The position numbers and the translations under genes are program-made. Shown here piece after piece: positions 7,293-48,168 of a DNA stretch of 64,000 bases. The stretch comes from a virus (taxonomy: Duplodnaviria > Heunggongvirae > Uroviricota > Caudoviricetes). The notes under the pieces were generated by a model that was not told the origin of the DNA, searched no databases, and saw only the letters and a list, made by a program, of their open reading frames with translations. Position 1 is the stretch's first letter. Each line of letters starts with the position of its first letter. The stretch covers positions 47,422-111,421 of IMG/VR virus record IMGVR_UViG_3300045960_000077; one strand, 5' to 3'.

Positions 7293-8256
7293 AGCTCAAA
7301 AAGAGTTCTTCGACAAGATAAACGCAGTCGAGTATGTTAATAAAACTCATGTCGATAGAATAAAAGACTATTGTCTCGGCATCAATAAGAACGTTACAGA
7401 TGTCATGAATACTCTTGACTGGGATCCGTCTAAAGAGCATAGAGCCAATTCACTTCTCCTTCAGAAGGTAGAAGCCACTGATGCCGTAGTTGACATTATA
7501 AAGTATGCCTTTAACATTTGCCATGAATTCGATATTGATTATGATACTTTAGTTCGCAAAATCAATATGAAAAATAAGACGATTGATCAAAAGTTCAATC
7601 AGCGTTTATTCATGGAAAGCTATAAATTTCAAAATTCTCATTATGCATTTATTATCGATATTGATGGTGTTTTGGCTGATATTGCATTAGCTTATAGAAC
7701 ATGGTTCGGGAATAAAATAGGCCTTGGAATATTTGAAACGTATCAATCTTTTCGTGATTGGAGCATTCGGAATATTGATAGGTATAGAGAACTAAAAGAA
7801 GAATATCGGCTGTCTGGTTATAAGATGATTATGCCTGCAGTTGATAATGCTAGAGACCTCCTTAGAGAATGCCACAAGAGAGGAATCGTATCTCTACTCA
7901 CGAATAGACCAGTCAAATCCTACCCTATTCTGTATATGTATACTGTCGAATGGCTATTCAATAGAGGTATGAGTCAGTGGGTTGACATGATTCATTTTAC
8001 CGATCTAGGCGAGAAAAAGTACTTTTTTGACCGATTTGCCGATAAAGAGGTTTACTTTATCGAAGATAATTGGTATAATGTAGTTAATACGATAGAACGA
8101 CCGAATGTATGCAACATTTATGTGAATAATGATACTAATAAAGATAAGCCGATCGACACAGAGTATATAAGCAAAACTGTAGACAACCTACAGGAAGCTA
8201 TCTCGTTTATAAAGGACTGCACAGATGATCAAAACGATAACGATTGCGGGAGTTAA
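7234..8256 (+). CDS. HAD-superfamily hydrolase (putative 5'-nucleotidase/deoxyribonucleotidase) with N-terminal extension
   Basis: HAD motif I (IIDIDGVLADIA) in the C-terminal half; nucleotide-metabolism context. Confidence 0.5.
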   Translation: MLETQKNLILYGEIMKKLYEAQKEFFDKINAVEYVNKTHVDRIKDYCLGINKNVTDVMNTLDWDPSKEHRANSLLLQKVEATDAVVDIIKYAFNICHEFDIDYDTLVRKINMKNKTIDQKFNQRLFMESYKFQNSHYAFIIDIDGVLADIALAYRTWFGNKIGLGIFETYQSFRDWSIRNIDRYRELKEEYRLSGYKMIMPAVDNARDLLRECHKRGIVSLLTNRPVKSYPILYMYTVEWLFNRGMSQWVDMIHFTDLGEKKYFFDRFADKEVYFIEDNWYNVVNTIERPNVCNIYVNNDTNKDKPIDTEYISKTVDNLQEAISFIKDCTDDQNDNDCGS

Positions 8257-11200: not shown

Positions 11201-12202
11201 ATGGATGAAGAAGCCGCCAACAGTTTGTGGGATCTCATTAGATCATTTGCTCGCTATGGATTTAACAAATCCCACGCTGACGCCTATACAATTACAAGTT
11301 TTAGAGAACTATGGCTTAAAGCTCACTACGGATTAGAATTCTATACGGCTTTACTTAATAATACGTTCCGTGCGAAGGAGGATAAATATGGAACATCGTC
11401 GGTTGCAAAATATATATCTCATATCCAAACAAATCCTGTATACTCCTGTGAGGGAGGAAAGTTCGTCAAAAGACCAAAAGTTAGGATTTTACCTGTCGAC
11501 ATTAACAAATCAGGTAAGGAGTTCGAAATCGATGGTAACGATATCAGATTCGGACTCACCTTCGTTAAAGGAATAACGCCAGATGCAGCTGACGAAATTA
11601 TCCGAAATCGACCATTCAAATCCATTGGAGATCTTATCAACTCTGATAAAAAATCTCTCAAAAATAAGAGAGTCATCGTCGCACTTATCCAGTCAGGAGC
11701 TCTGGATTCTATTGCAGGATCAGAGGGAAGATCTGAACTATATAATCGATTTATTACTGAAAGAAAATATAAAGAAGATCCGGTTGCGTGGGACCTCACA
11801 GAAACAATACAAAACGAAATAGAGTATACGAACATCTCATTCACTGAAGTTGATTATTTCACTAGGCTAAAAGAGGCAGTGAAAGAAAAGCATGGTGATA
11901 AACTCAAGATGGCTGCACTTGAAGATGCTGCCGATCTAGATAATGGACGAGAAGTATCTTGTTTCTTTAGAATCAATATGATAATGAAAAAGAAAACAAA
12001 GAATGGAAAGAAATATTATGTGCTAGGTTTATCTGACGGCATCTCTAATATGGGTCGTATTTATTACTGGGCACATAAAGAAGAAAGTCCCATAAACTGT
12101 GAAGACAAGAAGATCATAAATAACGTATACATAGGTACAATCAATAAGCAAAACAATTTCTTCGGATTAAAGAAAGCGAGGTTTGTAAAGAGCATATGCT
12201 AA
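8225..12202 (+). CDS. dnaE: DNA polymerase III alpha-like (DnaE/PolC family) with N-terminal family-4 UDG-like domain
   Basis: N-terminus has CQNCPLSK plus AYHPSYF, resembling UDG family 4 CxxC and HPS motifs. It is followed by the PHP domain NLHVHNEFSIRDG and the DnaE core (GRGSAGGSLVNYLTEITDIDPIKHNLLFERFL); 1325 aa. Confidence 0.85.
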   Translation: MIKTITIAGVKHSVEPIEVEGNFADLVDSIADMSVSACQNCPLSKLEINKDFVKPSGYPRARIMFVGMNPSNKRCSTTVFGGEDDRHKAIVNEMLKGVNLTRDNVYFTNFLKCSTADNKFDEESAKRCVGKLIDEIAIVDPDLIVCLGETVANLFGVDFHHNFGPVKNGDYLVAKAYHPSYFIRSGKSSEDNLKLLKEMIDEINLRSFVNLHVHNEFSIRDGIGTAEEHVMWGLKHKAPAVALTNHGNVSVFFKQYEACKRAGIKPIYGAELYIIPDRAALIPYIGSEAEGAVEKRKELGGSRHHILILAKNYTGLKNLFKITSLAFMHSFYKFPLIDFELLAENKEGLIISTACASGELNRLIAAGKNNDAIKYVEKYKAEFGDNFYLEMMSMNYSHQWELNKCLWDISKQTGVKTIVTTDAHYLYPDDQKVHEAILLLQTKMSYKQKDEEEPDEEIPEEDQDVETEKLWEFTVKDLYLKTFNHVYKDHEAGKWFGLAENGGVKNDYDAFTTTMKNTYDLFTKIENFDLDKTIKIPKLYEDGAKVLYDKIAEGLKFRNIPKDKLPEYKARCRREYDVIVKMGFVDYFLILEDMIRWTKKTFGRYSVGPGRGSAGGSLVNYLTEITDIDPIKHNLLFERFLDEGRKDLPDVDIDFRPDVRDKVKEYLVTKYGADKVATICNYQVAKVKSSIKDAARIYNLDFAEVNKVTNAIPFFIYNGSTKDTIDNMTYEWINEHYKEVSDFLKRYPDVDKLFRRLRNSIKAIGRHAAGLVVSDVTLYDWIPLVRARENIVTANTEGGDYHELTGQGFVKFDILGLNNIAVVTDCMDLVKNRYGVEIDWDRIDVEAPEAYGLAKRGDLLGVFQFESGLAHRVTDDVQPDCFDDLSAINAIIRPGPLDMGMEKEFARRKRSGDWEKNVHPSYAQLLKATYGIIVYQEDFMRIFREIGKFNAIEVNKSRKDLVKYERSTKSETARLKRVDSWHDKFISNASEVMDEEAANSLWDLIRSFARYGFNKSHADAYTITSFRELWLKAHYGLEFYTALLNNTFRAKEDKYGTSSVAKYISHIQTNPVYSCEGGKFVKRPKVRILPVDINKSGKEFEIDGNDIRFGLTFVKGITPDAADEIIRNRPFKSIGDLINSDKKSLKNKRVIVALIQSGALDSIAGSEGRSELYNRFITERKYKEDPVAWDLTETIQNEIEYTNISFTEVDYFTRLKEAVKEKHGDKLKMAALEDAADLDNGREVSCFFRINMIMKKKTKNGKKYYVLGLSDGISNMGRIYYWAHKEESPINCEDKKIINNVYIGTINKQNNFFGLKKARFVKSIC

Positions 12203-27959: not shown

Positions 27960-28466
27960 TTATTTTACTTTCTGATTGCCCACAGTAACAGTAGGAAGTC
28001 TCTTCATAATTTCCATCATCATCTGTTTCATGTCATTCATGTGTGCTGAGAGGAGTTTCTTGTTCTCTTCATCACGAGCTTCAATAAGCGATCTAATCTT
28101 CAAGTTGTACTTTTCATTGAGATCGTTTTCTTTCGCCTGAATCTTGAGATCGAGCATCTTCTTTTCATGCTCAAGAGTGTTGGCTGCTTTTTCTTTGTCG
28201 AGACTAATCAAGTGATTGATATCGACCTTTTCACGATTGAAATCAGATTGCATCTTCTTTTTCTCTAGTTCATTATCAGATCTAATAGTCTTGATAGCAA
28301 TCTCTAGATCGCGCTTTTCGATCTTCAAGCCATCAATAGCAGCCTGAAGGTCATCAAGTCGTTCCTGTAGGGATTGTTCTTTTGCTTCCTCTGTACCGAT
28401 GGAAGCGGCGAGATGATTTACAACTTTTTCGAGCTTTTCTTCGAGCGCTTTATTAATAAACATATG
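27960..28466 (-). CDS. coiled-coil protein
   Basis: Glu/Lys-rich heptad-like sequence. The start is trimmed to MHMFINK (RBS AGGAGG) to avoid overlap with tRNA-Leu. Confidence 0.45.
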   Translation of the reverse strand, partial: HMFINKALEEKLEKVVNHLAASIGTEEAKEQSLQERLDDLQAAIDGLKIEKRDLEIAIKTIRSDNELEKKKMQSDFNREKVDINHLISLDKEKAANTLEHEKKMLDLKIQAKENDLNEKYNLKIRSLIEARDEENKKLLSAHMNDMKQMMMEIMKRLPTVTVGNQKVK

Positions 28467-28518
28467 CATCCTCCTTGGGATATTAGTTACATTATACCAC
28501 ATACAGCGCCATTTTGTG

Positions 28519-28603
28519 TGCGGATAGAGGGATTCGAACCCCCACGCTGTTTCCAGCACTGCGTTCTAAGCGCAGCATGTCTTCCAGTTCCAATCATACC
28601 CGC
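28519..28603 (-). tRNA. tRNA-Leu (anticodon TAG), class II long variable arm
   Basis: The reverse complement gives acceptor GCGGGTA/TATCCGC, anticodon loop CTTAGAA, variable arm TGCTGGAAACAGCGT and T-arm GGGGGTTCGAATCCCTC. Confidence 0.7.
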
Positions 28604-28817
28604 ATTCTACTTCATTGGTAAAGCTTCGACTTTCTCTTTCGGTTCTGGTCGAGATTGGCATTTGCATATCTGATTTGTATTTTTAGGCACTCCACCCATA
28701 GAAACAAACTTTCTACGGACGCCTGTACCGCCACACTTATTACAAGTTTTTTCAAACTTTGGTTTATCTTTGAGCCTTGCTTGCCATCCCATATCTATGC
28801 CTCCTGATTATTTTATG

Positions 28818-28891
28818 TGCTCCAAACGGGAGTCGAACCCGCCCTGTACAGTTTTTGAGACTGCTGACTCTACCACGTGGCCTACTGGAGC
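28818..28891 (-). tRNA. tRNA with anticodon CAA (Leu codon UUG) but class I short variable arm; discriminator A
   Basis: Acceptor GCTCCAG/TTGGAGC, anticodon stem GCAGT/ACTGT, loop CTCAAAA, variable ACAG(G), T-arm GCGGGTTCGACTCCCGT. Confidence 0.5.
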
Positions 28892-28894
28892 ATG

Positions 28895-28967
28895 CGCCCT
28901 TGGGAAGATTCGAACTCCCAACCTGCGGGGTAGAAACCCGTTGCTCTAATCCATTGAGCTACAAGGG
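28895..28967 (-). tRNA. tRNA-Arg (anticodon TCT)
   Basis: Acceptor GCCCTTG/CAAGGGC, D-arm GCTCAATGGATTAGAGC, loop TTTCTAC, T-arm GGGAGTTCGAATCTTCC. Confidence 0.7.
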
Positions 28968-29561
28968 CATGCAATTAATTTATGCTTTTTCATTATTTAC
29001 GGAGATCTGATTCTCCTGCTTTTCCAATTATGTCATTTGTCATGACCTTTGAAAGATCATCCGAAAGTCGACCAGCTCCAACTGGAACTTCTCTTGGAGG
29101 AGTCTTAATTGTGTTTTGATGATTTTTAATCATGTTTTGAATTTCTTTAATTCTGTGTGAATTCATTACTTTATTGCTCCCTTTGCTGCATCGACTGCAG
29201 CCTTAGCTTTGGCTTCCGCCTCAGCAAATTTTATTCCATTTTTCTTCCCAACAAAAAATCCACCCACAAACGCACCAACAAGTAACAAAAGAATTACTAA
29301 TATCTCAGTCATTTTATCTCCTTATTATAAAGTCGGTTGATTCTCGGGGCCTTCATCTAATTCAAAGCCCTGAAGCTTCGAGTTACAGCCATACGGGCTT
29401 TCACGTTTCCATTCTGATGCCATAAATGGATCGGCAACAGCCGCGTTATACTTACATGATTTACCACAAGATTCGCATCCCGGGAGATTAACTAATGTAC
29501 TTGGCCGTTTCGTCATTTTGCTTTTCTTTTTCACCATATATGCTCCTTTTTTGTTTTACTG

Positions 29562-29633
29562 AGCCGCTTGTCGGTATTGATCCGACGACCTGTCGCTTAC
29601 AAGGCGACTGCTCTACCACTGAGCTAAAGCGGC
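29562..29633 (-). tRNA. tRNA-Thr (anticodon TGT)
   Basis: Acceptor GCCGCTT/AAGCGGC, D-arm GCTCAGTGGTAGAGC, loop CTTGTAA, non-canonical T-loop ATCAATA. Confidence 0.65.
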
Positions 29634-29636
29634 ATG

Positions 29637-29709
29637 AGGCGCTTACTGGAATCGAACCAGTTTCCTCTGCTTTGCAGGCAGGTAGCTAAAACCAATCACT
29701 CAAAGCGCC
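29637..29709 (-). tRNA. tRNA-Cys (anticodon GCA)
   Basis: Acceptor GGCGCTT/AAGCGCC, loop CTGCAAA, T-arm ACTGGTTCGATTCCAGT. Confidence 0.6.
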
Positions 29710-29825
29710 ATATGTATACTAAATTATGAAGATCTATAAAAAAAATCGCTACAGACGATAAAAAGGCTCGGCATCATAAGCATGGCCGGTAATGCCTCCA
29801 CCGAGCCCGGTCCCGGCAATAGATA

Positions 29826-29858
29826 CATTATACCACAACTGTCAAAAGATTGTAAATT
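29826..29858 (-). promoter_or_regulatory. sigma70-like promoter (TTTACAATC ... TGTGGTATAAT) driving tRNA-Cys/Thr segment
   Basis: The reverse complement reads TTTACAATCTTTTGACAGTTGTGGTATAATG. Confidence 0.5.
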
Positions 29859-31233
29859 AATAATTTACGTTCTTTCTAACTTCATCAAATGTATATTCTT
29901 TCACGATTTTGCCATTCTCGAATACAGTTTCAAGGACGTCTCGATCATACCATTTCGTGTCCTGCATGACGGTTTCATATCCTTCCATGGTCTCGATCAA
30001 GGCCAACTTCCCTTTCTTCGAGATCTTTACCTCATCAGTGATCGGCTCTTTGTAAACCATTACTTCTTTTCCATCCACTTTAGCGTACGATGCCTTCATT
30101 GCAAACTTGAAAGTATCACGATCAAGTTTTTGTAAGAGACCTCCACCCATCCCGAAGGCCACGTTCTCAATCGACCAACCAGTTTTGTAGACTCTCTCAA
30201 GAATCTCTCTAATTGTCTGTAAAGTACATCCGTCACCCTGAATGATTCTAACTTCAGGACGAAGTACTCTGTAGCCCTTCTTGTTGACAGTATATCCAAA
30301 CCTGTCGCCCAGAATTTGTAACAGTCGTTCAACTACATCTGGAGGATTACCACTATCAGGTCTGACAACTAACGTTCCACCCGTCTTTAAAACGAGGTCT
30401 TTCAGTTGTTTACCCCAGATATTGTCAGCAGCGTTATAGATGTCATAGCTGTCCGATACACAGGCATAGATCTTGCCAGGGCCGCCGTAAGCATTTACCA
30501 TATTTCTATAGGCATCTGCTTCTCCTCCACGTCCCCAAACTGTGATCGTGCTGTGCTCTGCTGCAGGGATAGAAAATCCAGCCATCCCAGCATTGTAATA
30601 TTTGTTCGCAGCCCAGATTCCTTCCACAGTATCCGAACCCATGAAGTTCACTAAGTGAGCTGCTCCACCAATCTCAGCCGATTCACCCGAAGAAACACCA
30701 CGTCCACCGAAATCATGGAGCCTGAACATGATCTGTTCCTCTGGGTTATCGCATGTCCTCTTGAGATAATCCATGATGGTTCTCTTGGCTCTAAAAGAAT
30801 TAGTTGCCACCGTCGTAGGGTACCAGACAGCCCTCATAAGAACCGTCTCAATGTAAGAAGTCAGCCAATAGCATTCAGGATCTGTATTTTCAACAGACAC
30901 CAAAATGTTCTTGAGATTCACTCTTCGTCCTTCGGGAACAGCCTTGATTCGGAGAGGGAGGAAGCCCTTGTGCTTCTTGAGGATGTATTCCCAACCCTCC
31001 TTGTTGAAGGGCTCGCCATGCGCCTTGAAGAATTCATCGGCCTCATCAATCATTTCCTGAGTGATTGGCTTGACAAAGAACTTCTTGAGGATCATTTGAA
31101 GTCCGAAAAATACTGTCTCGGGAAAGTCTCCACCGCGAGCTTCGATGTAAGAATAAACCTCGGTTGTTTTGGGCGGATACTGCCTCCAGTGGCTTGCCTT
31201 GTAGCTGTCAGTCATTAAGATCATGTTGTCCAT
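29857..31233 (-). CDS. nadV: nicotinamide phosphoribosyltransferase (NadV/NAMPT)
   Basis: N-terminal MDNMILMTDSYKASHWRQYPPKTTEVYSY matches the NAMPT family signature; 458 aa. Confidence 0.85.
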   Translation of the reverse strand: MDNMILMTDSYKASHWRQYPPKTTEVYSYIEARGGDFPETVFFGLQMILKKFFVKPITQEMIDEADEFFKAHGEPFNKEGWEYILKKHKGFLPLRIKAVPEGRRVNLKNILVSVENTDPECYWLTSYIETVLMRAVWYPTTVATNSFRAKRTIMDYLKRTCDNPEEQIMFRLHDFGGRGVSSGESAEIGGAAHLVNFMGSDTVEGIWAANKYYNAGMAGFSIPAAEHSTITVWGRGGEADAYRNMVNAYGGPGKIYACVSDSYDIYNAADNIWGKQLKDLVLKTGGTLVVRPDSGNPPDVVERLLQILGDRFGYTVNKKGYRVLRPEVRIIQGDGCTLQTIREILERVYKTGWSIENVAFGMGGGLLQKLDRDTFKFAMKASYAKVDGKEVMVYKEPITDEVKISKKGKLALIETMEGYETVMQDTKWYDRDVLETVFENGKIVKEYTFDEVRKNVNY

Positions 31234-31270
31234 TTGGAATCTCCTTCCTTAGCCAAACTGCTCTCCGCAG

Positions 31271-32299
31271 TTATCGGGCTAATCCGATGAAATGTTTGAT
31301 GATGTGGAAATGATCTTCGTAAAGCTTATCTTCCATGTCATAGAAAGCTACATACGGAATCCATTTAGCCTTTTCCGCATCATCACTCCCTTTCACACTC
31401 GGCAGTTCGCTCTGCCTGAGTACGAACAAAGAAGCATGTGTAATTGTACGTCCTCTCAAAGAGCGATTCGGAGCATCAAAAACCTTAGAAGTAATGAAAG
31501 ATCCTCTAATGACGTTCTTGTGTACACCAATCCGCGTTTCTTCCTTAAGCTCTCTAATTGTGCAATCTTCTAGCCTTTCATCTTGAGCCAAGAATCCGCC
31601 TGGGAGAGCCCAGAGGCCTTTGCCTGGATTTGCCTTCCTCTTGACGAGGAGAACGTGTCCATTGCAAAGAACTACAGCATCTGTAGTGACAAACGTAGGA
31701 GGATAGGGCATCGCCTTAAATGAATCTTTATACTCCTTGATGAACTTGTGCTCATCAGCTAAGCGTTTGTAATCTTCAGTAGCTCTAAAATCTTTAAGAA
31801 AGATCTTTGTAATTTCTGGACAATCAAGGTAGCGATAATCTATATCATATGAAAAATACTTGTCTCTAATTACCGTGGCTGCATGATTAACCACTTCATT
31901 TGTCTGAACGAATGTCCACTGAGGGAACATATCAAGATAGAACGTTGTATCGTCCTTCTTAGCTCCGACAAGTGCTACTTTGATTTCTTCATCATACGGA
32001 TCAATAACATCATTCACAACGCCCTGAACTTCAGCAATCCAATCTTGATCGTTATACAGGAAGTCTCTAATCGGTTTGATTGTCAGACGGTGCTGTTGTA
32101 CGTCAGGGACAGAATTTACAATCATGGCATACCGTTCGGCAAAAGAGAACGGGTTGCGGATATTTCTCGCAGCGAACGCAGAACCAACAAGTACGATAAC
32201 CTTGTCAGCTATATCCATAGCATTTGTGAGATTTTCTAAGTGTCCATTGTGGAGTGGCTGGAACCGGCCAATGAATACAGCGTAGTGATATTTGCGCAT
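31271..32299 (-). CDS. natV: bifunctional NMN adenylyltransferase / Nudix hydrolase (NatV/NadM-like)
   Basis: NMNAT motif GRFQPLHNGH and Nudix box GGFLAQDERLEDCTIRELKEETRI. The start is trimmed to MRKYHY (RBS GGAGGAG), because the upstream ATG lies in the promoter. Confidence 0.8.
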   Translation of the reverse strand: MRKYHYAVFIGRFQPLHNGHLENLTNAMDIADKVIVLVGSAFAARNIRNPFSFAERYAMIVNSVPDVQQHRLTIKPIRDFLYNDQDWIAEVQGVVNDVIDPYDEEIKVALVGAKKDDTTFYLDMFPQWTFVQTNEVVNHAATVIRDKYFSYDIDYRYLDCPEITKIFLKDFRATEDYKRLADEHKFIKEYKDSFKAMPYPPTFVTTDAVVLCNGHVLLVKRKANPGKGLWALPGGFLAQDERLEDCTIRELKEETRIGVHKNVIRGSFITSKVFDAPNRSLRGRTITHASLFVLRQSELPSVKGSDDAEKAKWIPYVAFYDMEDKLYEDHFHIIKHFIGLAR

Positions 32300-32344
32300 G
32301 GGATCTCCTCCCTCTCTGTAGTGGAACATCTCCTGTTCCATTAA

Positions 32345-32380
32345 TACCATTATACCATTAAATTAGACTTTTGTAAATGG
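32345..32380 (-). promoter_or_regulatory. sigma70-like promoter (TTTACAAAAG ... TGGTATAATGG) for natV-nadV
   Basis: The reverse complement reads CATTTACAAAAGTCTAATTTAATGGTATAATGGTA. Confidence 0.5.
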
Positions 32381-32394
32381 TTTCTTAAATTATG

Positions 32395-32465
32395 AGCCAA
32401 GTACGAGAATCGGACTCGTATTTCCTCCTTACCAAAGAGGCGGTCTGCCATTGACCTAACCCGGC
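32395..32465 (-). tRNA. tRNA-Thr (anticodon GGT)
   Basis: Acceptor GCCGGGT/ACTTGGC, D-arm GGTCAATGGCAGACC, loop TTGGTAA, T-loop TCCGATT. Confidence 0.55.
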
Positions 32466-32469
32466 ATGT

Positions 32470-32541
32470 GTCCTCGGCGAGACTCGAACTCACAATAAAT
32501 GGTTCGTAGCCATTCGGTTTATCCATTAGCCTACGAAGACA
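32470..32541 (-). tRNA. tRNA-Arg (anticodon ACG)
   Basis: Acceptor GTCTTCG/CGAGGAC, anticodon arm AATGG-CTACGAA-CCATT, T-arm GTGAGTTCGAGTCTCGC. Confidence 0.65.
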
Positions 32542-32543
32542 TG

Positions 32544-32630
32544 CGGAAGGTACTGGATTCGAACCAGTGCAGGTATTACCCTGACTCTAGTTTAGCAAAC
32601 TAGTGCAATACCAGACTCTGCCAACCTTCC
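32544..32630 (-). tRNA. tRNA-Ser (anticodon GCT), class II
   Basis: Acceptor GGAAGGT/ACCTTCC, anticodon arm CTAGT-TTGCTAA-ACTAG, long variable arm, T-arm CTGGTTCGAATCCAG. Confidence 0.7.
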
Positions 32631-32631
32631 A

Positions 32632-32802
32632 TTATACTATCTTGTCGTAAATCTTTTCACCTAAAAATCTAAATCCCCATCCCAAAACAACTCTCCAGGG
32701 AAATCCACACCAAGGTTCGTTCCCTGCAGCACAGCAAATAGCTAAAATAAATCCAATCTCAAAATAAAAGAGTAAAAACACTATAATTATTCCAAGAATC
32801 AT
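32632..32802 (-). CDS. small hydrophobic membrane protein (tentative)
   Basis: MILGIIIVFLLFYFEIGFILAICC... lies between tRNA genes. The start is trimmed to avoid the tRNA. Confidence 0.25.
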   Translation of the reverse strand: MILGIIIVFLLFYFEIGFILAICCAAGNEPWCGFPWRVVLGWGFRFLGEKIYDKIV

Positions 32803-32820
32803 GCTTGTCTCCTTTTTATG

Positions 32821-32904
32821 CGGTAGGAGTGGGACTCGAACCCACAGCACATTTAAGTGTTACTAGCTTTCGAAACTAGCTCCTCATCCAGCCGGATCCC
32901 TACC
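32821..32904 (-). tRNA. tRNA-Ser (anticodon CGA), class II
   Basis: Acceptor GGTAGGG/TCCTACC, anticodon arm CTAGT-TTCGAAA-GCTAG, variable hairpin CAC-TTAAAT-GTG, T-arm GTGGGTTCGAGTCCCAC. Confidence 0.6.
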
Positions 32905-33046
32905 TAAATAAAAGAACAGCTATTGAAGCAATAATCAATGTCCACTTAATAACGCGAGGCCAATTTGTTGGAGGTTCATTCGGACAATCATGAAATGCAA
33001 AATTATCCGGCTCTCCCATATATTTGTTACAATATGGACAATGCAT
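32900..33046 (-). CDS. small zinc-ribbon/transmembrane protein (tentative)
   Basis: MHCPYCNKY...HDCPNE followed by a hydrophobic tail; 48 aa. Confidence 0.25.
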   Translation of the reverse strand: MHCPYCNKYMGEPDNFAFHDCPNEPPTNWPRVIKWTLIIASIAVLLFR

Positions 33047-33065
33047 ATTCCTTCTCCTTTTTGTG

Positions 33066-33156
33066 CGGTGGCGGCAGGATTCGAACCTACGTAACGGACC
33101 GCTCCGTATGCACAGCCTTTCCAAGACTGCCTCTTACCAGACTAGAGTACGCCACC
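33066..33156 (-). tRNA. tRNA-Ser (anticodon GGA), class II
   Basis: Acceptor GGTGGCG/CGCCACC, D-arm CTC-TAGTCTGGTAA-GAG, loop TTGGAAA, variable ACGGA...TCCGT, T-arm GTAGGTTCGAATCCTGC. Confidence 0.65.
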
Positions 33157-33160
33157 AATG

Positions 33161-33243
33161 CGGAAGGTGAGGGACTCGAACCCCCGAGGCTTTTACACCC
33201 GGCTGCTTTCAAGGCAGTTTCCTCAACCGGCCGGATACCTTCC
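33161..33243 (-). tRNA. tRNA-Ser (anticodon TGA), class II
   Basis: Acceptor GGAAGGT/ACCTTCC, loop CTTGAAA, long variable arm, T-arm GGGGGTTCGAGTCCCTC. Confidence 0.65.
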
Positions 33244-33315
33244 GTAAAACCAAGCCTATTCGGCACCATTTCAGCTTGGCATGTGGTGTTTCACCGCCGA
33301 CCCACATTAATAAGG

Positions 33316-33519
33316 TTACCTCAATCTAGGAACGTTAATTGTTCCGATAGAACCGAATACCCCAAAAACGTTCAATAACCAAAGAACGACACAAATAATA
33401 ACGACAATATTTATGATGTTCTTAATCTTCGCATCCATCGGAATATATGTGTTTACGACCCATAACAACACACCAACGACAATAAGAATAATTACTAAGC
33501 TGATTAATGGCATAAGCAT
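33316..33519 (-). CDS. small hydrophobic membrane protein
   Basis: 67 aa with two predicted TM helices (LISLVIILIVVGVLLWVV, IVVIICVVLWLLNVFGVFG). Confidence 0.4.
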   Translation of the reverse strand: MLMPLISLVIILIVVGVLLWVVNTYIPMDAKIKNIINIVVIICVVLWLLNVFGVFGSIGTINVPRLR

Positions 33520-33557
33520 CCTCCTTCATAGATACTGGTTTATGCTTATGTACGTAC

Positions 33558-33627
33558 ATTTCTGTGCTGGCACCCTAGGAGTCGAACCCAGATTGAACGG
33601 TTCAGAGCCGTTTGTCCTACCATTGAA
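33558..33627 (-). tRNA. tRNA-Gln (anticodon CTG)
   Basis: U1-A72 acceptor TGGCGCC/GGTGCCA, D-arm GTTCAATGGTAGGAC, anticodon arm AACGG-CTCTGAA-CCGTT, T-arm CTGGGTTCGACTCCTAG. Confidence 0.65.
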
Positions 33628-33631
33628 CGAG

Positions 33632-33702
33632 GCGCCAATGTTTGACATGCCAGGGTTCGAACCTGGAACTTCTGGGTCAAAGCCAAATGTGATGCCATTT
33701 CA
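33632..33702 (-). tRNA. tRNA-Gln (anticodon TTG)
   Basis: U1-A72 acceptor TGACATG/CATGTCA, D-arm GTGAAATGGCATCAC, anticodon arm TTTGG-CTTTGAC-CCAGA, T-arm CCAGGTTCGAACCCTGG. Confidence 0.65.
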
Positions 33703-33872
33703 CCACATGTCAGTTTATGGTGGCTTACCTCAGTACCGCCCTGAGTAGGCCGCAGTTATGAGCCGCAGCTGAATACTTATTCGTAAGCCGTTGGTTGCGG
33801 GTACCGGAATTGCACCGGCTGACAGGGTTATGGGCCCCGCTTCTGCTCTCTTGCCGAATCACCCGCGTTATG

Positions 33873-34145
33873 TTACCATCTTTTAATCTTTGAGTTATCT
33901 AACATCATGTTAATGACGTTATCGTTGCCTTTTACGGCTTCATTATTGAATAAATTAATGAAACTTGCGCCCAAATGACAATCATTACAATTTCTTCCTA
34001 CAGTTGTTACAATTTTTATGTGATCCTGCGCATTTTGTTTTGAAACCCTTGCAGCATCTATATTTCTCGTAATCCCGGCAACTATTACGGTCAACGCAAT
34101 CATACAAGACACGATAGAAATACTTTTACATGTTTTTTCTTCCAT
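33873..34145 (-). CDS. hypothetical secreted/membrane protein
   Basis: 90 aa with a hydrophobic N-terminal segment; translationally coupled to the transglycosylase gene. Confidence 0.4.
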   Translation of the reverse strand: MEEKTCKSISIVSCMIALTVIVAGITRNIDAARVSKQNAQDHIKIVTTVGRNCNDCHLGASFINLFNNEAVKGNDNVINMMLDNSKIKRW

Positions 34146-34660
34146 TATAACCTCGCCAATACTTTCCGGAGCTTTGCAGCATATACCGCTTTATTCTCAT
34201 TATTAAATGAATGGTACGCTGCTAAATCTGTTTGCCCCATGCTTTTGTTTATGTTGATGATCTTACATGCAACTTCAACATTTTTGTAGACATTGAGAAG
34301 GTCTTTTGGGTCTTTAGTGAATCTGTTTTTCCAAGTTGGCCAATTAATCTGCATTAATCCATGATCGCCTGAGCTATTGATTAAAGTTGGTTGAAAGGTT
34401 GACTCAACAAATGCGATAGCGACAAGGTTTTTCGGTTTTATTCCGTAATACCTTGCATTCTCCACTATTGCAATTGCCACTTTCTTTTTTGTAGAATCAG
34501 GAACTTCAGCTCCTGTTTTGTCTATCATCTTCTCTACTTGTATCACTTCCGGATGATTCTCGGGATTCAGAATATAGAAAAATCTCTGATTTCCTCTTAC
34601 CAACAAGTATGTGAGTGACAACGTACATGCCATAATCGTTAACAACAGTATCTTTCTCAT
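34145..34660 (-). CDS. lytic transglycosylase (SLT domain) with N-terminal membrane anchor
   Basis: SLT catalytic motif IAFVESTFQP...GDHGLMQIN and an N-terminal hydrophobic segment. Confidence 0.75.
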   Translation of the reverse strand: MRKILLLTIMACTLSLTYLLVRGNQRFFYILNPENHPEVIQVEKMIDKTGAEVPDSTKKKVAIAIVENARYYGIKPKNLVAIAFVESTFQPTLINSSGDHGLMQINWPTWKNRFTKDPKDLLNVYKNVEVACKIININKSMGQTDLAAYHSFNNENKAVYAAKLRKVLARL

Positions 34661-34757
34661 TTCGGTGGGTTTTTCCTCCCATCGTGGATTTTGGCTCCTT
34701 TTTCGGTTGATATGTATATCATACTACATCTACAATAGATTGTAAACCAATAAATGA

Positions 34758-34827
34758 GCGGGTAAGGAGAATCGAACTCCTCGCTTTAGCTTGGAAGGCT
34801 AAGGTATTACCACTATACGATACCCGC
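34758..34827 (-). tRNA. tRNA-Gly (anticodon TCC)
   Basis: Acceptor GCGGGTA/TACCCGC, D-arm GTATAGTGGTAATAC, anticodon arm TTAGC-CTTCCAA-GCTAA, T-arm GGAGTTCGATTCTCC. Confidence 0.7.
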
Positions 34828-34829
34828 GC

Positions 34830-35069
34830 TTAATCAACGTCAAAATACTTTATCGTGAAATATGTACCACAAAAACACCCTAAACCAGCTGGTATTAAAA
34901 TCCATGCATCTTTTATGAATTCACCAATTGTAAAAGCGCCTACAACGTAAATAAAAATAGAAGCGATACCAGCCTTGAATGCTTTACCCTTCGACGACCA
35001 TCTTATATAGAGTGCCCATATAATGTCAGTAAAAAATAATGCAATAAAAATCACAATCCATTTTATCAT
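34830..35069 (-). CDS. small membrane protein
   Basis: 79 aa and highly hydrophobic (IVIFIALFFTDIIWALYI...). Confidence 0.4.
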   Translation of the reverse strand: MIKWIVIFIALFFTDIIWALYIRWSSKGKAFKAGIASIFIYVVGAFTIGEFIKDAWILIPAGLGCFCGTYFTIKYFDVD

Positions 35070-35725
35070 AATAAATCACGTGTAGATATTATTCCATCTT
35101 GTCCTCTATAGAATAGTGAAAACTTTAAGTCAATGGACATTGGAAATACTTCGTATAATGTTCTTGCAGCATCCTCTGGTCTACTAATGATGTCCCACTT
35201 GGTATTAGTATGAGCAGGACGTCTGAAACGCCCTGAGAGGAGCAATCTAAAGAACATTATATCACATAACGTACCCTCAAGCCAGGGCGTCCATTTAGAA
35301 AATCCAGCAACCCACTTAAGTGTACTTATGTTATTCAACAGCATCTCAGCTGTTTTCTGATTAATAAAATCACATGCTCCGAAATATAGTCCATCAAAAT
35401 TTGTTGTCTTGATTAAGATATTTCTAAGCTTCACTCTATTTATGTTATTGAGAGCTTGAAGCTTGTCTTTCTGGCCGTGGACACCAAAATAGCCGATCTT
35501 CAAACGGCCGTCTAAACCGACGTCCAATTTATAATTTAATGCAGCTTCTAATCCTTCAGCGGTTCCAAATACGTAATAAGAAAAGAGAGCATCATGTCCT
35601 GATTCATCATCATCTAGCTCTCTTTTTAGTTGTGCAAAAAATGGTTTGACTGATTCCTCATGAAGCTTGTCCCACTGCGCCTCATAAAGTTTAATAACGT
35701 ACTTGGTTTCAGTTCTGTTTTTCAT
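35066..35725 (-). CDS. hypothetical protein
   Basis: 219-aa ORF. Confidence 0.45.
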   Translation of the reverse strand: MKNRTETKYVIKLYEAQWDKLHEESVKPFFAQLKRELDDDESGHDALFSYYVFGTAEGLEAALNYKLDVGLDGRLKIGYFGVHGQKDKLQALNNINRVKLRNILIKTTNFDGLYFGACDFINQKTAEMLLNNISTLKWVAGFSKWTPWLEGTLCDIMFFRLLLSGRFRRPAHTNTKWDIISRPEDAARTLYEVFPMSIDLKFSLFYRGQDGIISTRDLL

Positions 35726-35726
35726 G

Positions 35727-35797
35727 AGCCCCCACTCGGAATCGAAACGAGATTTACTGCTTACGAAACAGTTGTTCTTCCATTGAACTATGAGGGC
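35727..35797 (-). tRNA. tRNA-Thr (anticodon CGT)
   Basis: Acceptor GCCCTCA/TGGGGGC, D-arm GTTCAATGGAAGAAC, anticodon arm ACTGT-TTCGTAA-GCAGT, T-loop TTCGATT. Confidence 0.6.
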
Positions 35798-35800
35798 ATG

Positions 35801-35873
35801 TGCTCCCGGTCAGATTCGAACTGACACTGTACAGGGTTTAAGCCTGCTGACTCTGCCGTTGGCCTACGAGAGC
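35801..35873 (-). tRNA. tRNA with anticodon TAA (Leu codons UUA/UUG) but canonical 73-nt class I structure; discriminator A
   Basis: Acceptor GCTCTCG/CGGGAGC, D GGCCAACGGCAGAGTC, anticodon arm GCAGG-CTTAAAC-CCTGT, variable ACAGT, T-arm GTCAGTTCGAATCTGAC. It is a sibling of the CAA tRNA at 28818. Confidence 0.55.
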
Positions 35874-36024
35874 ATGCTCTTCCAATTCTTCTAATTCTTC
35901 GCCAATTTCATCTTCTATAAATCTCTTGTAATACGAACGAAGCTCGGAATAGCTGTATATTCCGTCCCAGCCCCAGTAAATGGGTCGTTCAATGTTCGGA
36001 GATTTATTCATACTCCTCCTCATG

Positions 36025-36098
36025 TGGCCCTAGTGGGATTCGAACCCACACTTTACAGCTTCTCGAACTGCTCCCTCTGCCAGTTGGGGTACAAGGCC
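36025..36098 (-). tRNA. tRNA-like gene with anticodon GAG (Leu CUC) in class I frame; position 33 is C rather than U
   Basis: Acceptor GGCCTTG/TAGGGCC, anticodon arm GCAGT-TCGAGAA-GCTGT, T-arm GTGGGTTCGAATCCCAC. Confidence 0.45.
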
Positions 36099-36102
36099 AT
36101 GG

Positions 36103-36191
36103 TAGTCGGTGAGGGACTCGAACCCCCATCACGCCCTAATCTGGGGCTTACAGGGTATAAGCCTGCTGTTTTACCGTTAAACTAACCGACC
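36103..36191 (-). tRNA. class II (long variable arm) tRNA with anticodon TAT (AUA codon)
   Basis: Acceptor GGTCGGT/ACCGACT, D GTTTAACGGTAAAAC, anticodon arm GCAGG-CTTATAC-CCTGT, variable hairpin GCCC-CAGATTA-GGGC, T-arm GGGGGTTCGAGTCCCTC. Confidence 0.5.
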
Positions 36192-36192
36192 A

Positions 36193-37485
36193 TTATAATG
36201 TAAAAACGCCTTCTTCATCTAGAATCTCGTACAATCTTTCTTGAGGTACAACGCTTTCGTTCAAATAAATCGAATTGTATTTTCTCCGTAAGTTCACCCA
36301 GTGTTCCCACGAAATAAAATTTCCTTGCGGCGCCCATATATGCAAACGATTCCAATCAAACGTAGCAATATCAATCAAACCACTATTTACAGCATCGTTC
36401 CACACCCTTGTACCAGGTAACGGCATTAAAATATTAAATGATGCATGTACAGGAAACTTACCTTCGTGATAATTTTTCATTATCCACCGACAAGTTTCAC
36501 GAGTTTCTTCTTCTGTCTCGCTTGGCCAGCCAACAATCCAAGACGTTCCTAAAGCTACTCCCTTTTCATGAAACTTGTTAACTATTGCCTGGTTTTGAGC
36601 TACAGTGTTTCCTTTTCCTATGAGCTTCAGAATTCTATCATTTCCAGATTCGGCACTAAAAATGATTCGTTGAATTGGGTAAAAACTTTTTATGAGATCC
36701 AATAATTCATCATTAGCTTCGTGTACTGATATTTGAATAGTCATAAAATATGACTTTTTATTCAATCCTCTTTTTTTAAGTTTATCTATTATCTCATAAA
36801 ATCTCTTTTTATTTGCAACAAATAAATCGTCCATTACTGGGATGTGTTGAGAGCCAATTGCAACAAGACGTTCTATTTCATCAACAACCCAATCTGAACT
36901 ATTTAATCTAATCTTCTTCCAAAATGCCGAGCTGCTACAAAATGTGCATTTATAAGGACATCCTCTTGATGTGAAGATGTGCCGATTGTTTGTTATTCCT
37001 TCTCTATAAGGATGAGGAATGTCGTCTAAATTTGCAATCAATTCTCTTCTAGGAGCAGCGATCAATTGACCGTCTTTCCAGAAAACCAGACCATTTATCT
37101 TAAAAAGATCTTCTTCCTTTCGGCCATTCAAGAAGTATTGAATAAGCTCTAAAAAGGTCTGTTCACCTTCACCAATTACTGCGAAATCAATCTCAGGAAT
37201 CAGTGTCCCAGGCAGCCATGTGACGTGTTGACCGCCGATGACTATTGGCATTCCGGGATGCTGTTGCTTTATATATTGAGCTAAGTCCTTAGCTCGATTC
37301 CAATCTTGTGACAAAGTAGAAATTGCAATTACATCACATCGATGCAGATTCTCAAAATCAGCTCTAATCATCTCGACGGAATCACTTAAATGTTTGTGCA
37401 AATATGCCTTTAAATACCCGAATACCAGCTCAACGATAGGAGTGTCATCTTCGGGATCTCTCACATACACAAAGCCTATTCTCAT
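36193..37485 (-). CDS. B12-binding domain radical SAM enzyme (class B rSAM)
   Basis: N-terminal cobalamin-binding-like domain plus radical SAM CxxxCxxC (CPYKCTFCSS). 430 aa; paralog of 46831..48168. Confidence 0.75.
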   Translation of the reverse strand: MRIGFVYVRDPEDDTPIVELVFGYLKAYLHKHLSDSVEMIRADFENLHRCDVIAISTLSQDWNRAKDLAQYIKQQHPGMPIVIGGQHVTWLPGTLIPEIDFAVIGEGEQTFLELIQYFLNGRKEEDLFKINGLVFWKDGQLIAAPRRELIANLDDIPHPYREGITNNRHIFTSRGCPYKCTFCSSSAFWKKIRLNSSDWVVDEIERLVAIGSQHIPVMDDLFVANKKRFYEIIDKLKKRGLNKKSYFMTIQISVHEANDELLDLIKSFYPIQRIIFSAESGNDRILKLIGKGNTVAQNQAIVNKFHEKGVALGTSWIVGWPSETEEETRETCRWIMKNYHEGKFPVHASFNILMPLPGTRVWNDAVNSGLIDIATFDWNRLHIWAPQGNFISWEHWVNLRRKYNSIYLNESVVPQERLYEILDEEGVFTL

Positions 37486-39877: not shown

Positions 39878-39909
39878 GCTGTTCTCCTTAATTAAGATGT
39901 GCCATCGAG

Positions 39910-39980
39910 TGGTTCTGCCCCACCGTCGGACGGTTATCAGCCGTCTGCTCTACTATTGAGCTACGAAGGCAAGCTGGGTA
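39910..39980 (-). tRNA. tRNA-Ile (anticodon GAT), non-canonical T-loop
   Basis: Acceptor GCCTTCG/CGATGGC (one mismatch), D GCTCAATAGTAGAGC, anticodon arm GACGG-CTGATAA-CCGTC, T-loop GGCAGAA. Confidence 0.55.
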
Positions 39981-43282: not shown

Positions 43283-43377
43283 ATTTCCGCTGTGCCTTTA
43301 CCTGTACCCAATCTAAGAGGTTATACCCTTAGTGACGGCCGGGTCTGCTCGAATGACTCGCGGATCAGTCCTTGTGT

Positions 43378-43453
43378 CTACGTGGTTGGATTTGAACCAA
43401 CGTCCTCCCGCTTCCAGGGCGGGTCGTCTGAATCCTGGCTGACTTACACGTAG
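43378..43453 (-). tRNA. atypical tRNA-like gene, anticodon probably TGG (Pro); enlarged D-loop, C at position 33
   Basis: Perfect acceptor CTACGTG/CACGTAG, anticodon arm CCCGC-CCTGGAA-GCGGG, T-arm GTTGGTTCAAATCCAAC. Confidence 0.4.
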
Positions 43454-43462
43454 GTAATAATG

Positions 43463-43538
43463 TCCGAGTAGCAGGATTCGAACCTGCGACCCCCTGCTCC
43501 CAAGGCAGGTGCTCTAAACCAGACTGAGCTACACCCGG
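43463..43538 (-). tRNA. tRNA-Pro (anticodon TGG)
   Basis: Acceptor CCGGGTG/TACTCGG, D GCTCAGTCTGGTTTAGAGC, anticodon arm CCTGC-CTTGGGA-GCAGG with G37, T-arm GCAGGTTCGAATCCTGC. Confidence 0.65.
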
Positions 43539-46830: not shown

Positions 46831-48168
46831 CTAGTTCCTCACAATCACGTTGGCCATGTGGCCTTTGTTGTAGAACATCTCGATAATCTGTAATTCATAC
46901 TTGCCCATGATTTCAAATAATCGTTCCTGCGGGACCGTGTCTTCATTCAGATAGATGCTGTTATTCTTTCTACGAACATCGCACCATTTTTCGAATGAGG
47001 GTTCGTTAGATGTCCTATATGATGCAAAGATACCGAGACGATCCCAATTAAAGTTGTTCAAGTCTATTATACCACTTTTTACAGCGTCACTCCACACAGC
47101 TGTCCCAGGAAGAGGAGTTAAAATATTCACAGAAGACCAGGGATCAAGTTTCTCGTCTTTCATGTTCTTTATCATGAATTCGTATGTTGTAATAAGCTCT
47201 TCCTCTGTTTCAGTAGGCCAACCAACAATGAATGAGCAAACCGCCTTGATACCGTTTGCCTTTAGAACATCTAATGCTTTTTGATTCTGTGCAGCAGTGA
47301 CATTTTTACCCATCAATTGCAGCACTCTATCTGAAGCCGATTCTGCACCGAAATGGACCTCCTGAATGGGAAAGCCATCTTTCAACATGTCACAAAAATC
47401 TTGCGTGATCAGATTAGCTCTAGCGTTAATCGACGAATGAAACTTATCATTTAGTTTTCTATCTTTTAACTTCTGAGTTATTTCAATGAACCGCTGTTTA
47501 TGTGCTACAAACAAATCGTCTTGAATCGGGATTGCTGTAGCACCACAATTTACCAGATATTCCATTTCATTGACAACATAATTAGCGCTATGAAACCGAG
47601 TTGTCTTCCAAAACGCAGAGCTACTGCAGAACCTGCATTTGTATGGACATCCTCTTGATGTCATGAGATGCGGCACAAACGCTGGTTCCCTAAAAGGGAA
47701 TGGAATCTGATCAATTGGATCGATGAACGCCCTTGGATTATTCCTCATCGTACTAGAATAATGATGCACAAGACCGTCAATTTTCAAAAGATCTTCTACA
47801 CTTCCACTTTTCATCACATGCTTGACAAACTCAACTAACGTCTGTTCACCCTCACCAATGCACCCAAAATCAAACTCTGATGTAAGAGTATTCGGCAAAG
47901 CCGTTATATGTGATCCGCCAAGAATTGTGATAATCTTTGGCTTTTTAGTTTTAACATGCCGGGCAATGTTCCGGGCGAAGTTATAATCCTGCGTCGTGCA
48001 TGAAATAGCAGCAATATCATATTCATGAAGTTTATCAACGCCCACTCTATCAAACACAACAGAATCGCCAAGGTGTTTATGCATATATGATTTCAAATAA
48101 CCGAAAGCTAGTGAAGGCCACCAATGAACGTCAATTGGGTTTGTGGCTTGAATAAATCCTACTCTCAC
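46831..48168 (-). CDS. B12-binding domain radical SAM enzyme (paralog of 36193..37485)
   Basis: CPYKCRFCSS radical SAM motif; collinear similarity to the other rSAM across its length; 445 aa. Confidence 0.75.
   Translation of the reverse strand: MRVGFIQATNPIDVHWWPSLAFGYLKSYMHKHLGDSVVFDRVGVDKLHEYDIAAISCTTQDYNFARNIARHVKTKKPKIITILGGSHITALPNTLTSEFDFGCIGEGEQTLVEFVKHVMKSGSVEDLLKIDGLVHHYSSTMRNNPRAFIDPIDQIPFPFREPAFVPHLMTSRGCPYKCRFCSSSAFWKTTRFHSANYVVNEMEYLVNCGATAIPIQDDLFVAHKQRFIEITQKLKDRKLNDKFHSSINARANLITQDFCDMLKDGFPIQEVHFGAESASDRVLQLMGKNVTAAQNQKALDVLKANGIKAVCSFIVGWPTETEEELITTYEFMIKNMKDEKLDPWSSVNILTPLPGTAVWSDAVKSGIIDLNNFNWDRLGIFASYRTSNEPSFEKWCDVRRKNNSIYLNEDTVPQERLFEIMGKYELQIIEMFYNKGHMANVIVRN

Follow-up and report, generated by a model that had tools for sequence, protein, structure and literature searches.

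The tRNA array of an uncultured phage raises the question of what a tRNA with a leucine anticodon does when it lacks the long variable arm of a class II tRNALeu. The window analyzed here is a 64,000-nucleotide (nt) stretch of phage DNA (IMG/VR record IMGVR_UViG_3300045960_000077, positions 47,422 to 111,421). It contains three short-arm tRNA genes of this kind, with the anticodons CAA, UAA, and GAG, and a fourth leucine tRNA with a long arm. No cultured close relative of the phage is apparent, and a megablast search of INPHARED with positions 28400-36300 returned no match. We concluded that the three genes are most likely working type I (class I) tRNALeu that would be charged with leucine by the host's leucyl-tRNA synthetase (LeuRS), and we assign this explanation a probability of approximately 0.8.

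Structure of the leucine tRNAs

The leucine tRNA genes of the window are as follows:
28818-28891, minus strand, type I (class I) tRNA-Leu(CAA); Rfam RF00005 40.2 bits, E 5e-5; ARAGORN 28817-28891
35801-35873, minus strand, type I tRNA-Leu(UAA); Rfam RF00005 50.0 bits, E 1e-7; ARAGORN 35800-35873
36025-36098, minus strand, type I tRNA-Leu(GAG); Rfam RF00005 48.8 bits, E 2e-7; ARAGORN 36024-36098
28519-28603, minus strand, class II tRNA-Leu(UAG); Rfam 42.3 bits; ARAGORN 28518-28603

A sequence-only reading of this DNA had proposed class I folds for the three short genes. Rfam RF00005 placed them at the same coordinates, and the ARAGORN cloverleaves agreed. Software folding returned 5-nt variable loops and the anticodons CAA, UAA, and GAG rather than long arms or other anticodons. 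The acceptor stem is 7 bp long in each gene, the anticodon stem 5 bp, and the anticodon loop 7 nt, and the T arm is canonical (ARAGORN). The D stem is 3 bp long (GGC/GUC in two genes and CCC/GGG in one) with C13.A22 unpaired, and the D loop of 10-11 nt ends in GG(U/C)AGA. The Leu-type D arm and core, comprising the 3-bp D stem, the unpaired 13:22, U8-A14, and G18G19 followed by N-A-G-A, is present in all three. Single-sequence thermodynamic folding gave z-scores of -1.1 to -1.5, which are weak, as is usual for tRNAs, and were not used as evidence.

The variable loops are ACAGG in Leu(CAA), ACAGU in Leu(UAA), and AAAGU in Leu(GAG); the ACAG motif attributed earlier to this group is, therefore, found in the first two, whereas the GAG gene has AAAG. 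The anticodon loops are CUCAAAA (CAA), CUUAAAC (UAA), and UCGAGAA (GAG), the last of which confirms the C33 noted previously. Inspection of the identity elements bore out the discriminator A73 in all three genes and revealed a 15:48 pair that is A:U (as in Leu(UAA)) or, in Leu(CAA), C:G, with no G3:U70. A long variable arm, taken as at least 10 nt with a stem, is found among the four genes only in Leu(UAG). Its arm of 15 nt agrees with the earlier assignment of the gene at 28519 to class II, although its D stem is weak (U12.C23). With this gene, the leucine set of the phage is most likely complete, such that the three class I tRNAs and the class II tRNA would read all six leucine codons.

A family of type I tRNALeu in phages

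A DNA pattern derived from two of the sibling tRNAs retrieved two IMG/VR contigs of 163 and 116 kb (L001 and L002) that carry the same tRNA array. All four leucine isoacceptors of these contigs (GAG, UAG, UAA, and CAA) are class I tRNAs of 73-75 nt; the UAG isoacceptor is thus class I in L001 and L002 and class II in the window. Leu(UAA) of the window is 100% identical to that of L001. Leu(GAG) is 85% identical to its L001 counterpart, the loop of which is the normal CUGAGAG. The proteins of related contigs are 63-88% identical to those of the window.

A looser tRNA pattern matched at least 120 IMG/VR loci, and 120 loci formed the survey sample. ARAGORN identified 208 class I tRNAs with leucine anticodons (155 unique) at these loci versus 28 of class II. 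Among the 155 unique sequences, A73 was conserved in 155, U8 in 154, A14 in 150, and A15 in 151; these positions and the acceptor stem lie outside the search pattern. U48, the last base of the variable loop and within the pattern, was conserved in 145. G18G19 was essentially invariant, 13:22 was C.A in 131 of the 155, and the variable loop was 5 nt long in 149 of the 155. Pairing in the four stems (acceptor, D, anticodon, and T) was 85-100% among these sequences, with 3-6 pair types per position. RNAalifold recovered the cloverleaf unprompted from 40 family sequences, and double substitutions were detected at 18 of the 21 pairs. The tRNA calls go beyond chance, since tRNAs of this type are found again in the relatives and in other genomes by the hundreds, and compensatory changes affect these 18 of 21 base pairs.

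The D-arm signature was detected in 136 of the 155 class I leucine tRNAs, in 18 of the 28 class II leucine tRNAs, and in fewer than 20% of the tRNAs of almost all other isotypes that fold as class I, a comparison in which non-leucine tRNAs with long variable arms were too few to judge. G3:U70, the alanine identity pair, is absent from the family. Since the D-arm signature is mostly limited to leucine tRNAs, the short tRNAs appear to be tRNALeu bodies minus the arm rather than other isotypes with a mutated anticodon.

We also observed a second short-arm leucine subtype in phages, which has a class-II-like D arm (G9, G13, GAAUUGGUAUAC) and the variable loop AUUUU. Leucine tRNAs with intermediate variable regions of 7 nt and of 10-12 nt were detected as well. 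These intermediates and the second subtype suggest that the long arm was lost repeatedly and stepwise. The genes of the second subtype or with intermediate arms are at the following survey loci:
L004, 2198-2274
L012, 2208-2285
L052, 7032-9884
L019, 6949-7024
L089 and L103

Cultured phages carry the family as well, and 262 INPHARED records matched a consensus member. The members inspected are genes of 74-77 nt with leucine anticodons and 5-nt variable loops, and are annotated plainly as tRNA-Leu. They are found in Cronobacter phage S13 (UAA and CAA), Mycobacterium phage Myrna (GAG and CAG), cyanophage P-RSM6, Bacillus phage P59 (two genes), Lactobacillus phage Bacchae, and Myxococcus phage Mx1. 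These phages share the tRNA family with the window; however, they infect hosts of different phyla, six in all for the cultured phages with the family, and none is close to it at the genome level. We found no paper in the searchable literature on class I tRNALeu of phages as a topic.

Type I tRNALeu in bacterial chromosomes

The sequence-only reading had held that bacterial tRNA-Leu is invariably class II, which is not the case. A UUR pattern specific to class I was applied to the GTDB species genomes and matched at least 120 loci, 120 of which were sampled. Among the 80 matches listed, 72 were in Actinomycetota and the remainder were scattered over other phyla. The Actinomycetota listed include Streptomyces, Nocardia, Mycobacterium, Rhodococcus, Corynebacterium, Bifidobacterium, Arthrobacter, Nocardioides, and Microbacterium; Streptomyces and approximately 70 other actinobacterial genera carry the family among the matches listed. 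According to ARAGORN, a single class I gene, either Leu(UAA) or Leu(CAA), is present at each GTDB locus and is the sole tRNA within 8 kb at 111 of the 120 loci, and the contigs that bear these genes reach 11.6 Mb. The actinobacterial class I tRNALeu looks like a housekeeping chromosomal gene.

The window copies are close to these genes. Leu(UAA) shares 86% identity with its chromosomal counterpart in Nocardioides iriomotensis (L149), and the nearest sequences to Leu(CAA) are class I Leu(CAA) tRNAs of viruses and actinobacteria at 74-80% identity. Overall, identities to the copies of Nocardioides, Aeromicrobium, Streptomonospora, and other chromosomes range between 74 and 86%. The best non-leucine tRNAs reach 69-74% identity, and the nearest neighbors are all leucine tRNAs. 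Therefore, the three short tRNAs appear to belong to a widespread actinobacterial and phage family of type I tRNALeu, and what the phage copies are is already known in kind. The finding is less remarkable than previously supposed because the class-II-only premise was false.

A member of this type has been characterized biochemically. Streptomyces coelicolor has a type I tRNALeu(CAA) with the variable loop A44C45A46G47C48 beside four type II tRNALeu (Fan et al. 2019, PMC6614811). It was leucylated in vitro by the single LeuRS of this organism with a kcat/Km that was approximately half that of the type II UAA isoacceptor, and also by human mitochondrial LeuRS (PMC6614811).

Leucine codons in the phage genes

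The sequence-only reading had also raised the possibility that the three tRNAs recode UUR and CUC codons. The class II ribonucleotide reductase (RNR) and DnaE-type polymerase of the window were each aligned with 89 distant cellular homologues at 31-41% identity. Leucine was the top homologue residue at all six leucine codons, with the following mean leucine fractions:
UUA, 0.42 (n=21)
UUG, 0.47 (n=15)
CUU, 0.38 (n=47)
CUC, 0.41 (n=25)
CUA, 0.35 (n=25)
CUG, 0.35 (n=9)

The leucine fraction at non-leucine codons was 0.01-0.25. Codons read by the class I tRNAs and those read by the class II tRNA did not differ in their homologue residues. Close relatives had leucine at 70-89% of the leucine-codon positions of the window. 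In the relative L362 (RNR identity 84%), of the 19 UUA positions of the window, 4 had UUA, 3 CUU, 3 CUA, 2 CUG, and 1 UUG, and CUA of the window was UUA at 7 of 21 sites. Since a site with a UUR codon may have a CUN codon in the relative and vice versa, the six leucine codons are treated as synonymous in the phage genes. The comparative signal expected from recoding is absent, and these comparisons do not support the suggestion.

AUA codons were also considered because their distant homologue residues (leucine 0.25, isoleucine 0.15) had prompted a candidate recoding of AUA to leucine by a class II tRNA(UAU) of the array. This was rejected on data from close relatives, which had isoleucine at 69% of the AUA positions of the window. 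AUA corresponded to AUC, AUU, or AUA at 14 of 23 sites in one relative versus three leucine codons. AUA thus behaves as an isoleucine codon in this phage lineage.

Charging by LeuRS and alternative explanations

We infer that the three tRNAs are charged by LeuRS of the host and used on the ribosome as follows. A type I tRNALeu has lost the long variable arm and kept the other leucine identity elements of bacteria, namely, A73, U8-A14, the Levitt pair A15:U48, a Leu-type D loop with G18G19, and the 3-bp D stem. LeuRS neither reads the anticodon nor strictly requires the long arm, and would charge the three tRNAs with leucine during infection. The absence of the V arm from Aquifex tRNALeu mainly lowered its affinity for LeuRS (PMC2377443). 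Charging through A73 alone had been envisaged earlier; charging by LeuRS is favored by the present results, whereas recognition probably involves the Leu-type D loop and tertiary core in addition to A73. A73 is not an identity element for the LeuRS of S. coelicolor (PMC6614811).

Several points weigh against this explanation. LeuRS of Escherichia coli failed to charge the transcript of the S. coelicolor type I tRNALeu(CAA) (PMC6614811), and acceptance by the LeuRS of an arbitrary host is, therefore, not guaranteed. The window has no LeuRS gene of its own; its open reading frames of at least 700 aa encode RNR, DnaE, and PolA only. Leu(CAA) has C15:G48 in place of A15:U48 and the lowest Rfam score in the array (40.2 bits), and the C33 of Leu(GAG) is atypical of elongator tRNAs. 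Because the search pattern specified positions 46-50, the T loop, and a portion of the D loop for at least one tRNA at each locus, conservation there is partly by construction. Moreover, the codon comparisons show the codon meaning that the genes expect, not the cargo of these particular tRNAs.

Recoding would require a synthetase other than LeuRS to charge the class I tRNAs, placing another amino acid at UUA, UUG, or CUC/CUU. A class I body is formally mismatched with a leucine anticodon, and the rejection of one type I tRNALeu by E. coli LeuRS in vitro (PMC6614811) fits such a scenario. However, the D-arm and tertiary signature is of the leucine type and common to class II tRNALeu, G3:U70 is absent, and anticodon-dependent synthetases would refuse NAA and NAG anticodons under established identity rules. 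The alignment of all six codons with leucine in distant homologues, regardless of the class of tRNA that reads them, and the swapping of UUR and CUN codons at the same sites in a relative also argue against recoding, and the full four-anticodon class I set of the relatives fits a normal isoacceptor family. We regard recoding as hardly credible. The possibility that the short arms are deletion scars of decaying pseudogenes in a large array is very improbable. The array does hold degenerate members, such as an Ile(GAU) gene at 39900-39970 and Leu(UAG) with its weak D stem, and Leu(CAA) scores lowest. Nevertheless, Leu(UAA) is fully conserved between the window and L001 despite the divergence of Leu(GAG) (85%) and of the proteins (63-88%), compensatory substitutions are spread across hundreds of genomes, and the loop is 5 nt in 149 of 155 copies.

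A role as decoy or anti-defence RNAs was also proposed by the sequence-only reading. Such RNAs would serve mainly outside translation and may absorb or evade toxins that target tRNAs (anticodon nucleases or CCA-modifying toxins that recognize the arm), or may inhibit LeuRS. Phage T5 tRNAs reportedly escape anticodon nucleases via loop substitutions, and the toxin MenT3 is said to rely on the long variable arm in selecting tRNASer. The recurrence of C33 at a low frequency among phage tRNAs, as in Leu(GAG), is the one positive sign and is only suggestive. In contrast, selection for both aminoacylation and decoding is indicated by the invariant A73, by the intact acceptor stem and T arm, and by the canonical anticodon stem-loop of two of the three tRNAs. 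The same type of tRNA is a housekeeping chromosomal tRNA in Actinomycetota, and no toxin that targets tRNALeu via the variable arm was identified in the present study. We consider this role improbable. A related proposal is that shedding of the arm and C33 are adaptive rather than neutral, allowing the tRNAs to escape toxins or nucleases that sense class II arms or standard anticodon loops, or to work in a host with a LeuRS that treats them unlike its own tRNALeu; this is conceivable, but unlikely. If true, and together with the tRNA(UAU) described below, which gains an arm, it would mean that phage arrays re-engineer variable regions by moving or removing recognition elements.

The explanation that these genes are ordinary type I tRNALeu charged with leucine has a corrective value. 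A short-arm tRNA with a leucine anticodon in a phage or actinobacterium is probably an ordinary type I tRNALeu rather than an indication of codon reassignment. The family is also far wider than the S. coelicolor study implies, extending to phages of Cyanobacteria, Bacillota, Enterobacteria, Myxococcota, and Actinomycetota and to many actinobacterial chromosomes. This raises the question of which host LeuRS enzymes charge type I tRNALeu, since phages of Enterobacteria carry them despite the rejection of one such tRNA by E. coli LeuRS.

C33 variants

C33 in Leu(GAG) deviates from the expected and almost universal U33. Loops without U33 occurred in 36 of 1600 unique phage tRNAs and were enriched among G34 anticodons (GAC 4/19, GAU 4/44, and GAG 3/20). 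C33 with GAG was found in the window, L052, and L084. The window holds another C33 loop, CCUGGAA, which recurs in L073 and L076; these four loci are unrelated IMG/VR contigs. The gene is beside a normal proline tRNA:
43377-43453, minus strand, tRNA with the loop CCUGGAA (UGG, C33), detected by Rfam only
43462-43538, normal Pro(UGG)

C33 is a recurrent minor variant of phage tRNAs. It may represent either tolerated drift or evasion of loop-specific nucleases.

An adjacent tRNA(UAU) with a long variable arm

A tRNA outside the leucine set lies 2 bases upstream of Leu(GAG):
36100-36191, minus strand, tRNA(UAU) (AUA, Ile), 92 nt, with A73 and an encoded CCA; Rfam 61.6 bits, also found by ARAGORN

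Its minimum-free-energy fold is a five-arm cloverleaf. The variable arm is 22 nt long and forms a hairpin of 4 bp with the 7-nt loop CAGAUUA. The loci of the leucine survey, a sample that is unbiased with respect to isoleucine, contained 13 long-arm and 12 short unique UAU tRNAs. The motif GAU(A/U/G)A was present in 13 of the 13 long UAU arms versus 2 of 109 arms of leucine, serine, and tyrosine tRNAs. A targeted scan detected at least 75 unique long-arm tRNA(UAU), with 54 unique arms among the matches listed. Long-arm tRNA(UAU) genes also occur at the following loci:
L006, L016, L041, L045, L052, L057, L091, L092, L111, L243-L361, and L370

Across these genes, the arm has a covarying stem of 3-5 bp and a 7-nt loop C-A-G-A-U-(U/A)-A; the hairpin is preceded by 2-4 nt and followed by 5-6 nt. 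In 45 of 52 arms, C-G forms the third pair counted from the loop, at a position equivalent to C29-G41. C29-G41 is reported to be an identity pair for the isoleucyl-tRNA synthetase (IleRS) in E. coli (Nureki et al. 1994). In the present data, C29-G41 occurred in 20 of 44 anticodon arms of phage tRNAIle(GAU) versus 86 of 1102 other tRNAs. Since the loop and the third C-G pair match it, the extra arm of tRNA(UAU) appears to be a copy of the tRNAIle(GAU) anticodon arm. Decoding by the extra arm is unlikely because it has A33 and often U37.

E. coli IleRS charges tRNAIle with a UAU anticodon approximately 360-fold less well than the lysidine form (PMC3575796). As a working hypothesis, the extra arm may act as a mimic recognized by IleRS that supplies the GAU recognition element lacking in the UAU anticodon, with a geometry that is unexplained. 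If the arm does recruit IleRS, it would represent a new way of building tRNA identity, and this by-product of the analysis may matter more than the leucine finding. The only cultured phages found to carry a long-arm tRNA(UAU) were the Synechococcus phages S-SRM01 and S-SKS1, in which it is unannotated, and Sinorhizobium phage Phosso, in which it is annotated as a tRNA-Ile(tat) of 93 nt. A BLAST search of INPHARED gave no match for one variant of the tRNA and five records for a second. We found no description of a long-arm tRNAIle(UAU) in the searchable literature.

ARAGORN also reported long-arm phage tRNAs of other isotypes that are normally class I, namely, Asn GUU, Lys CUU, Gln UUG, Pro AGG/GGG, Cys GCA, His GUG, and Arg ACG. 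They are at the following loci:
L012, 1556-1824
L026, 5673-5758
L032, 1850-1947
L041, 4143-4242
L087, 3559-3650
L094, 7274-7357
L102, 4751-4837
L114, 6147-6232

The tRNA array and neighboring genes

ARAGORN detected 35 tRNA genes in the window, all on the minus strand and between 28.5 and 43.7 kb. Rfam RF00005 added two (39900-39970 and 43377-43453), for an array total of 37. None of the 37 has a CAU anticodon, and the array thus lacks an elongator methionine tRNA, an initiator, and a lysidine-type Ile2; nearly all amino acids other than those read via CAU are covered. The gene at 39900-39970, in which T4.T69 is mismatched and the T loop (GGCAGAA) is non-canonical, may be either a decaying or an unusual tRNAIle(GAU).

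The window encodes a DnaE-type polymerase with a fused uracil-DNA glycosylase (UDG) domain, PolA, a class II RNR, NAMPT, an NMNAT-Nudix protein, a ligase, and two B12-binding radical SAM proteins. Searches for clues to the host gave no clear answer: the best cellular matches of DnaE and RNR were of mixed taxonomy, no WhiB-like motif was found in the window, the contig index had no entry for the exact RNR protein, and habitat information was absent for the contigs of a relative. The UDG superfamily domain of DnaE occupies residues 58-193 at the N terminus, ahead of the PHP domain, and the fusion is kept across the phage clade (P0121-P0143). The two radical SAM genes are paralogues. A homologue of the adjacent radical SAM gene was present at only 3 of the 84 loci with tRNA(UAU), and a general link of this gene with the tRNA(UAU) arm was therefore rejected. 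An IMG/VR search seeded with the protein of this gene found nothing, whereas DNA patterns derived from the tRNAs succeeded. The features are as follows:
8225-12202, plus strand, DnaE-type polymerase III alpha, 1325 aa
29857-31233, NAMPT gene, interleaved with tRNA genes
31271-32350, NMNAT-Nudix gene, interleaved with tRNA genes
36193-37485, minus strand, B12-binding radical SAM gene, ending 2 bases from tRNA(UAU)
39900-39970, minus strand, tRNA with the loop CUGAUAA (Ile, GAU), Rfam 49.4 bits, missed by ARAGORN
46831-48168, minus strand, B12-binding radical SAM gene

Comparison with known systems

By its published features, the S. coelicolor tRNALeu(CAA) resembles the tRNAs of the window in its class I fold, 5-nt loop, leucine anticodon, and A73. 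The variable loop starts with ACAG in S. coelicolor (ACAGC) and in two of the window genes (ACAGG in CAA and ACAGU in UAA). However, only the CAA isoacceptor is type I in S. coelicolor, whereas the window genes are encoded by a phage within a 37-tRNA array in which UAA and GAG are also type I, as is UAG in the relatives. A horizontally acquired tRNA cluster of mycobacteria (PMC6582537) is similar in that its tRNALeu(TAG), the variable loop of which is short, is next to a tRNAIle(TAT) and a phage origin is probable. Unlike the window, this cluster is in a bacterial chromosome, and its short loop was mentioned in passing, without an analysis of identity elements.

Type I tRNALeu(UUR) of animal mitochondria shares the class I fold and A73 with the window genes. 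However, it is served by its own LeuRS under other identity rules, the LeuRS of S. coelicolor rejects it, and no sequence relationship was seen. The mismatch between anticodon and body in the nev-tRNAs of nematodes (PMC3333845) and in human Leu-CAA-5-1, a mutated tRNAMet (PMC8450103), is only superficially similar to that in the window. The bodies of those tRNAs are of a different isotype, whereas the tRNAs of the window have a Leu-type D arm and core and are associated with codons that behave as leucine.

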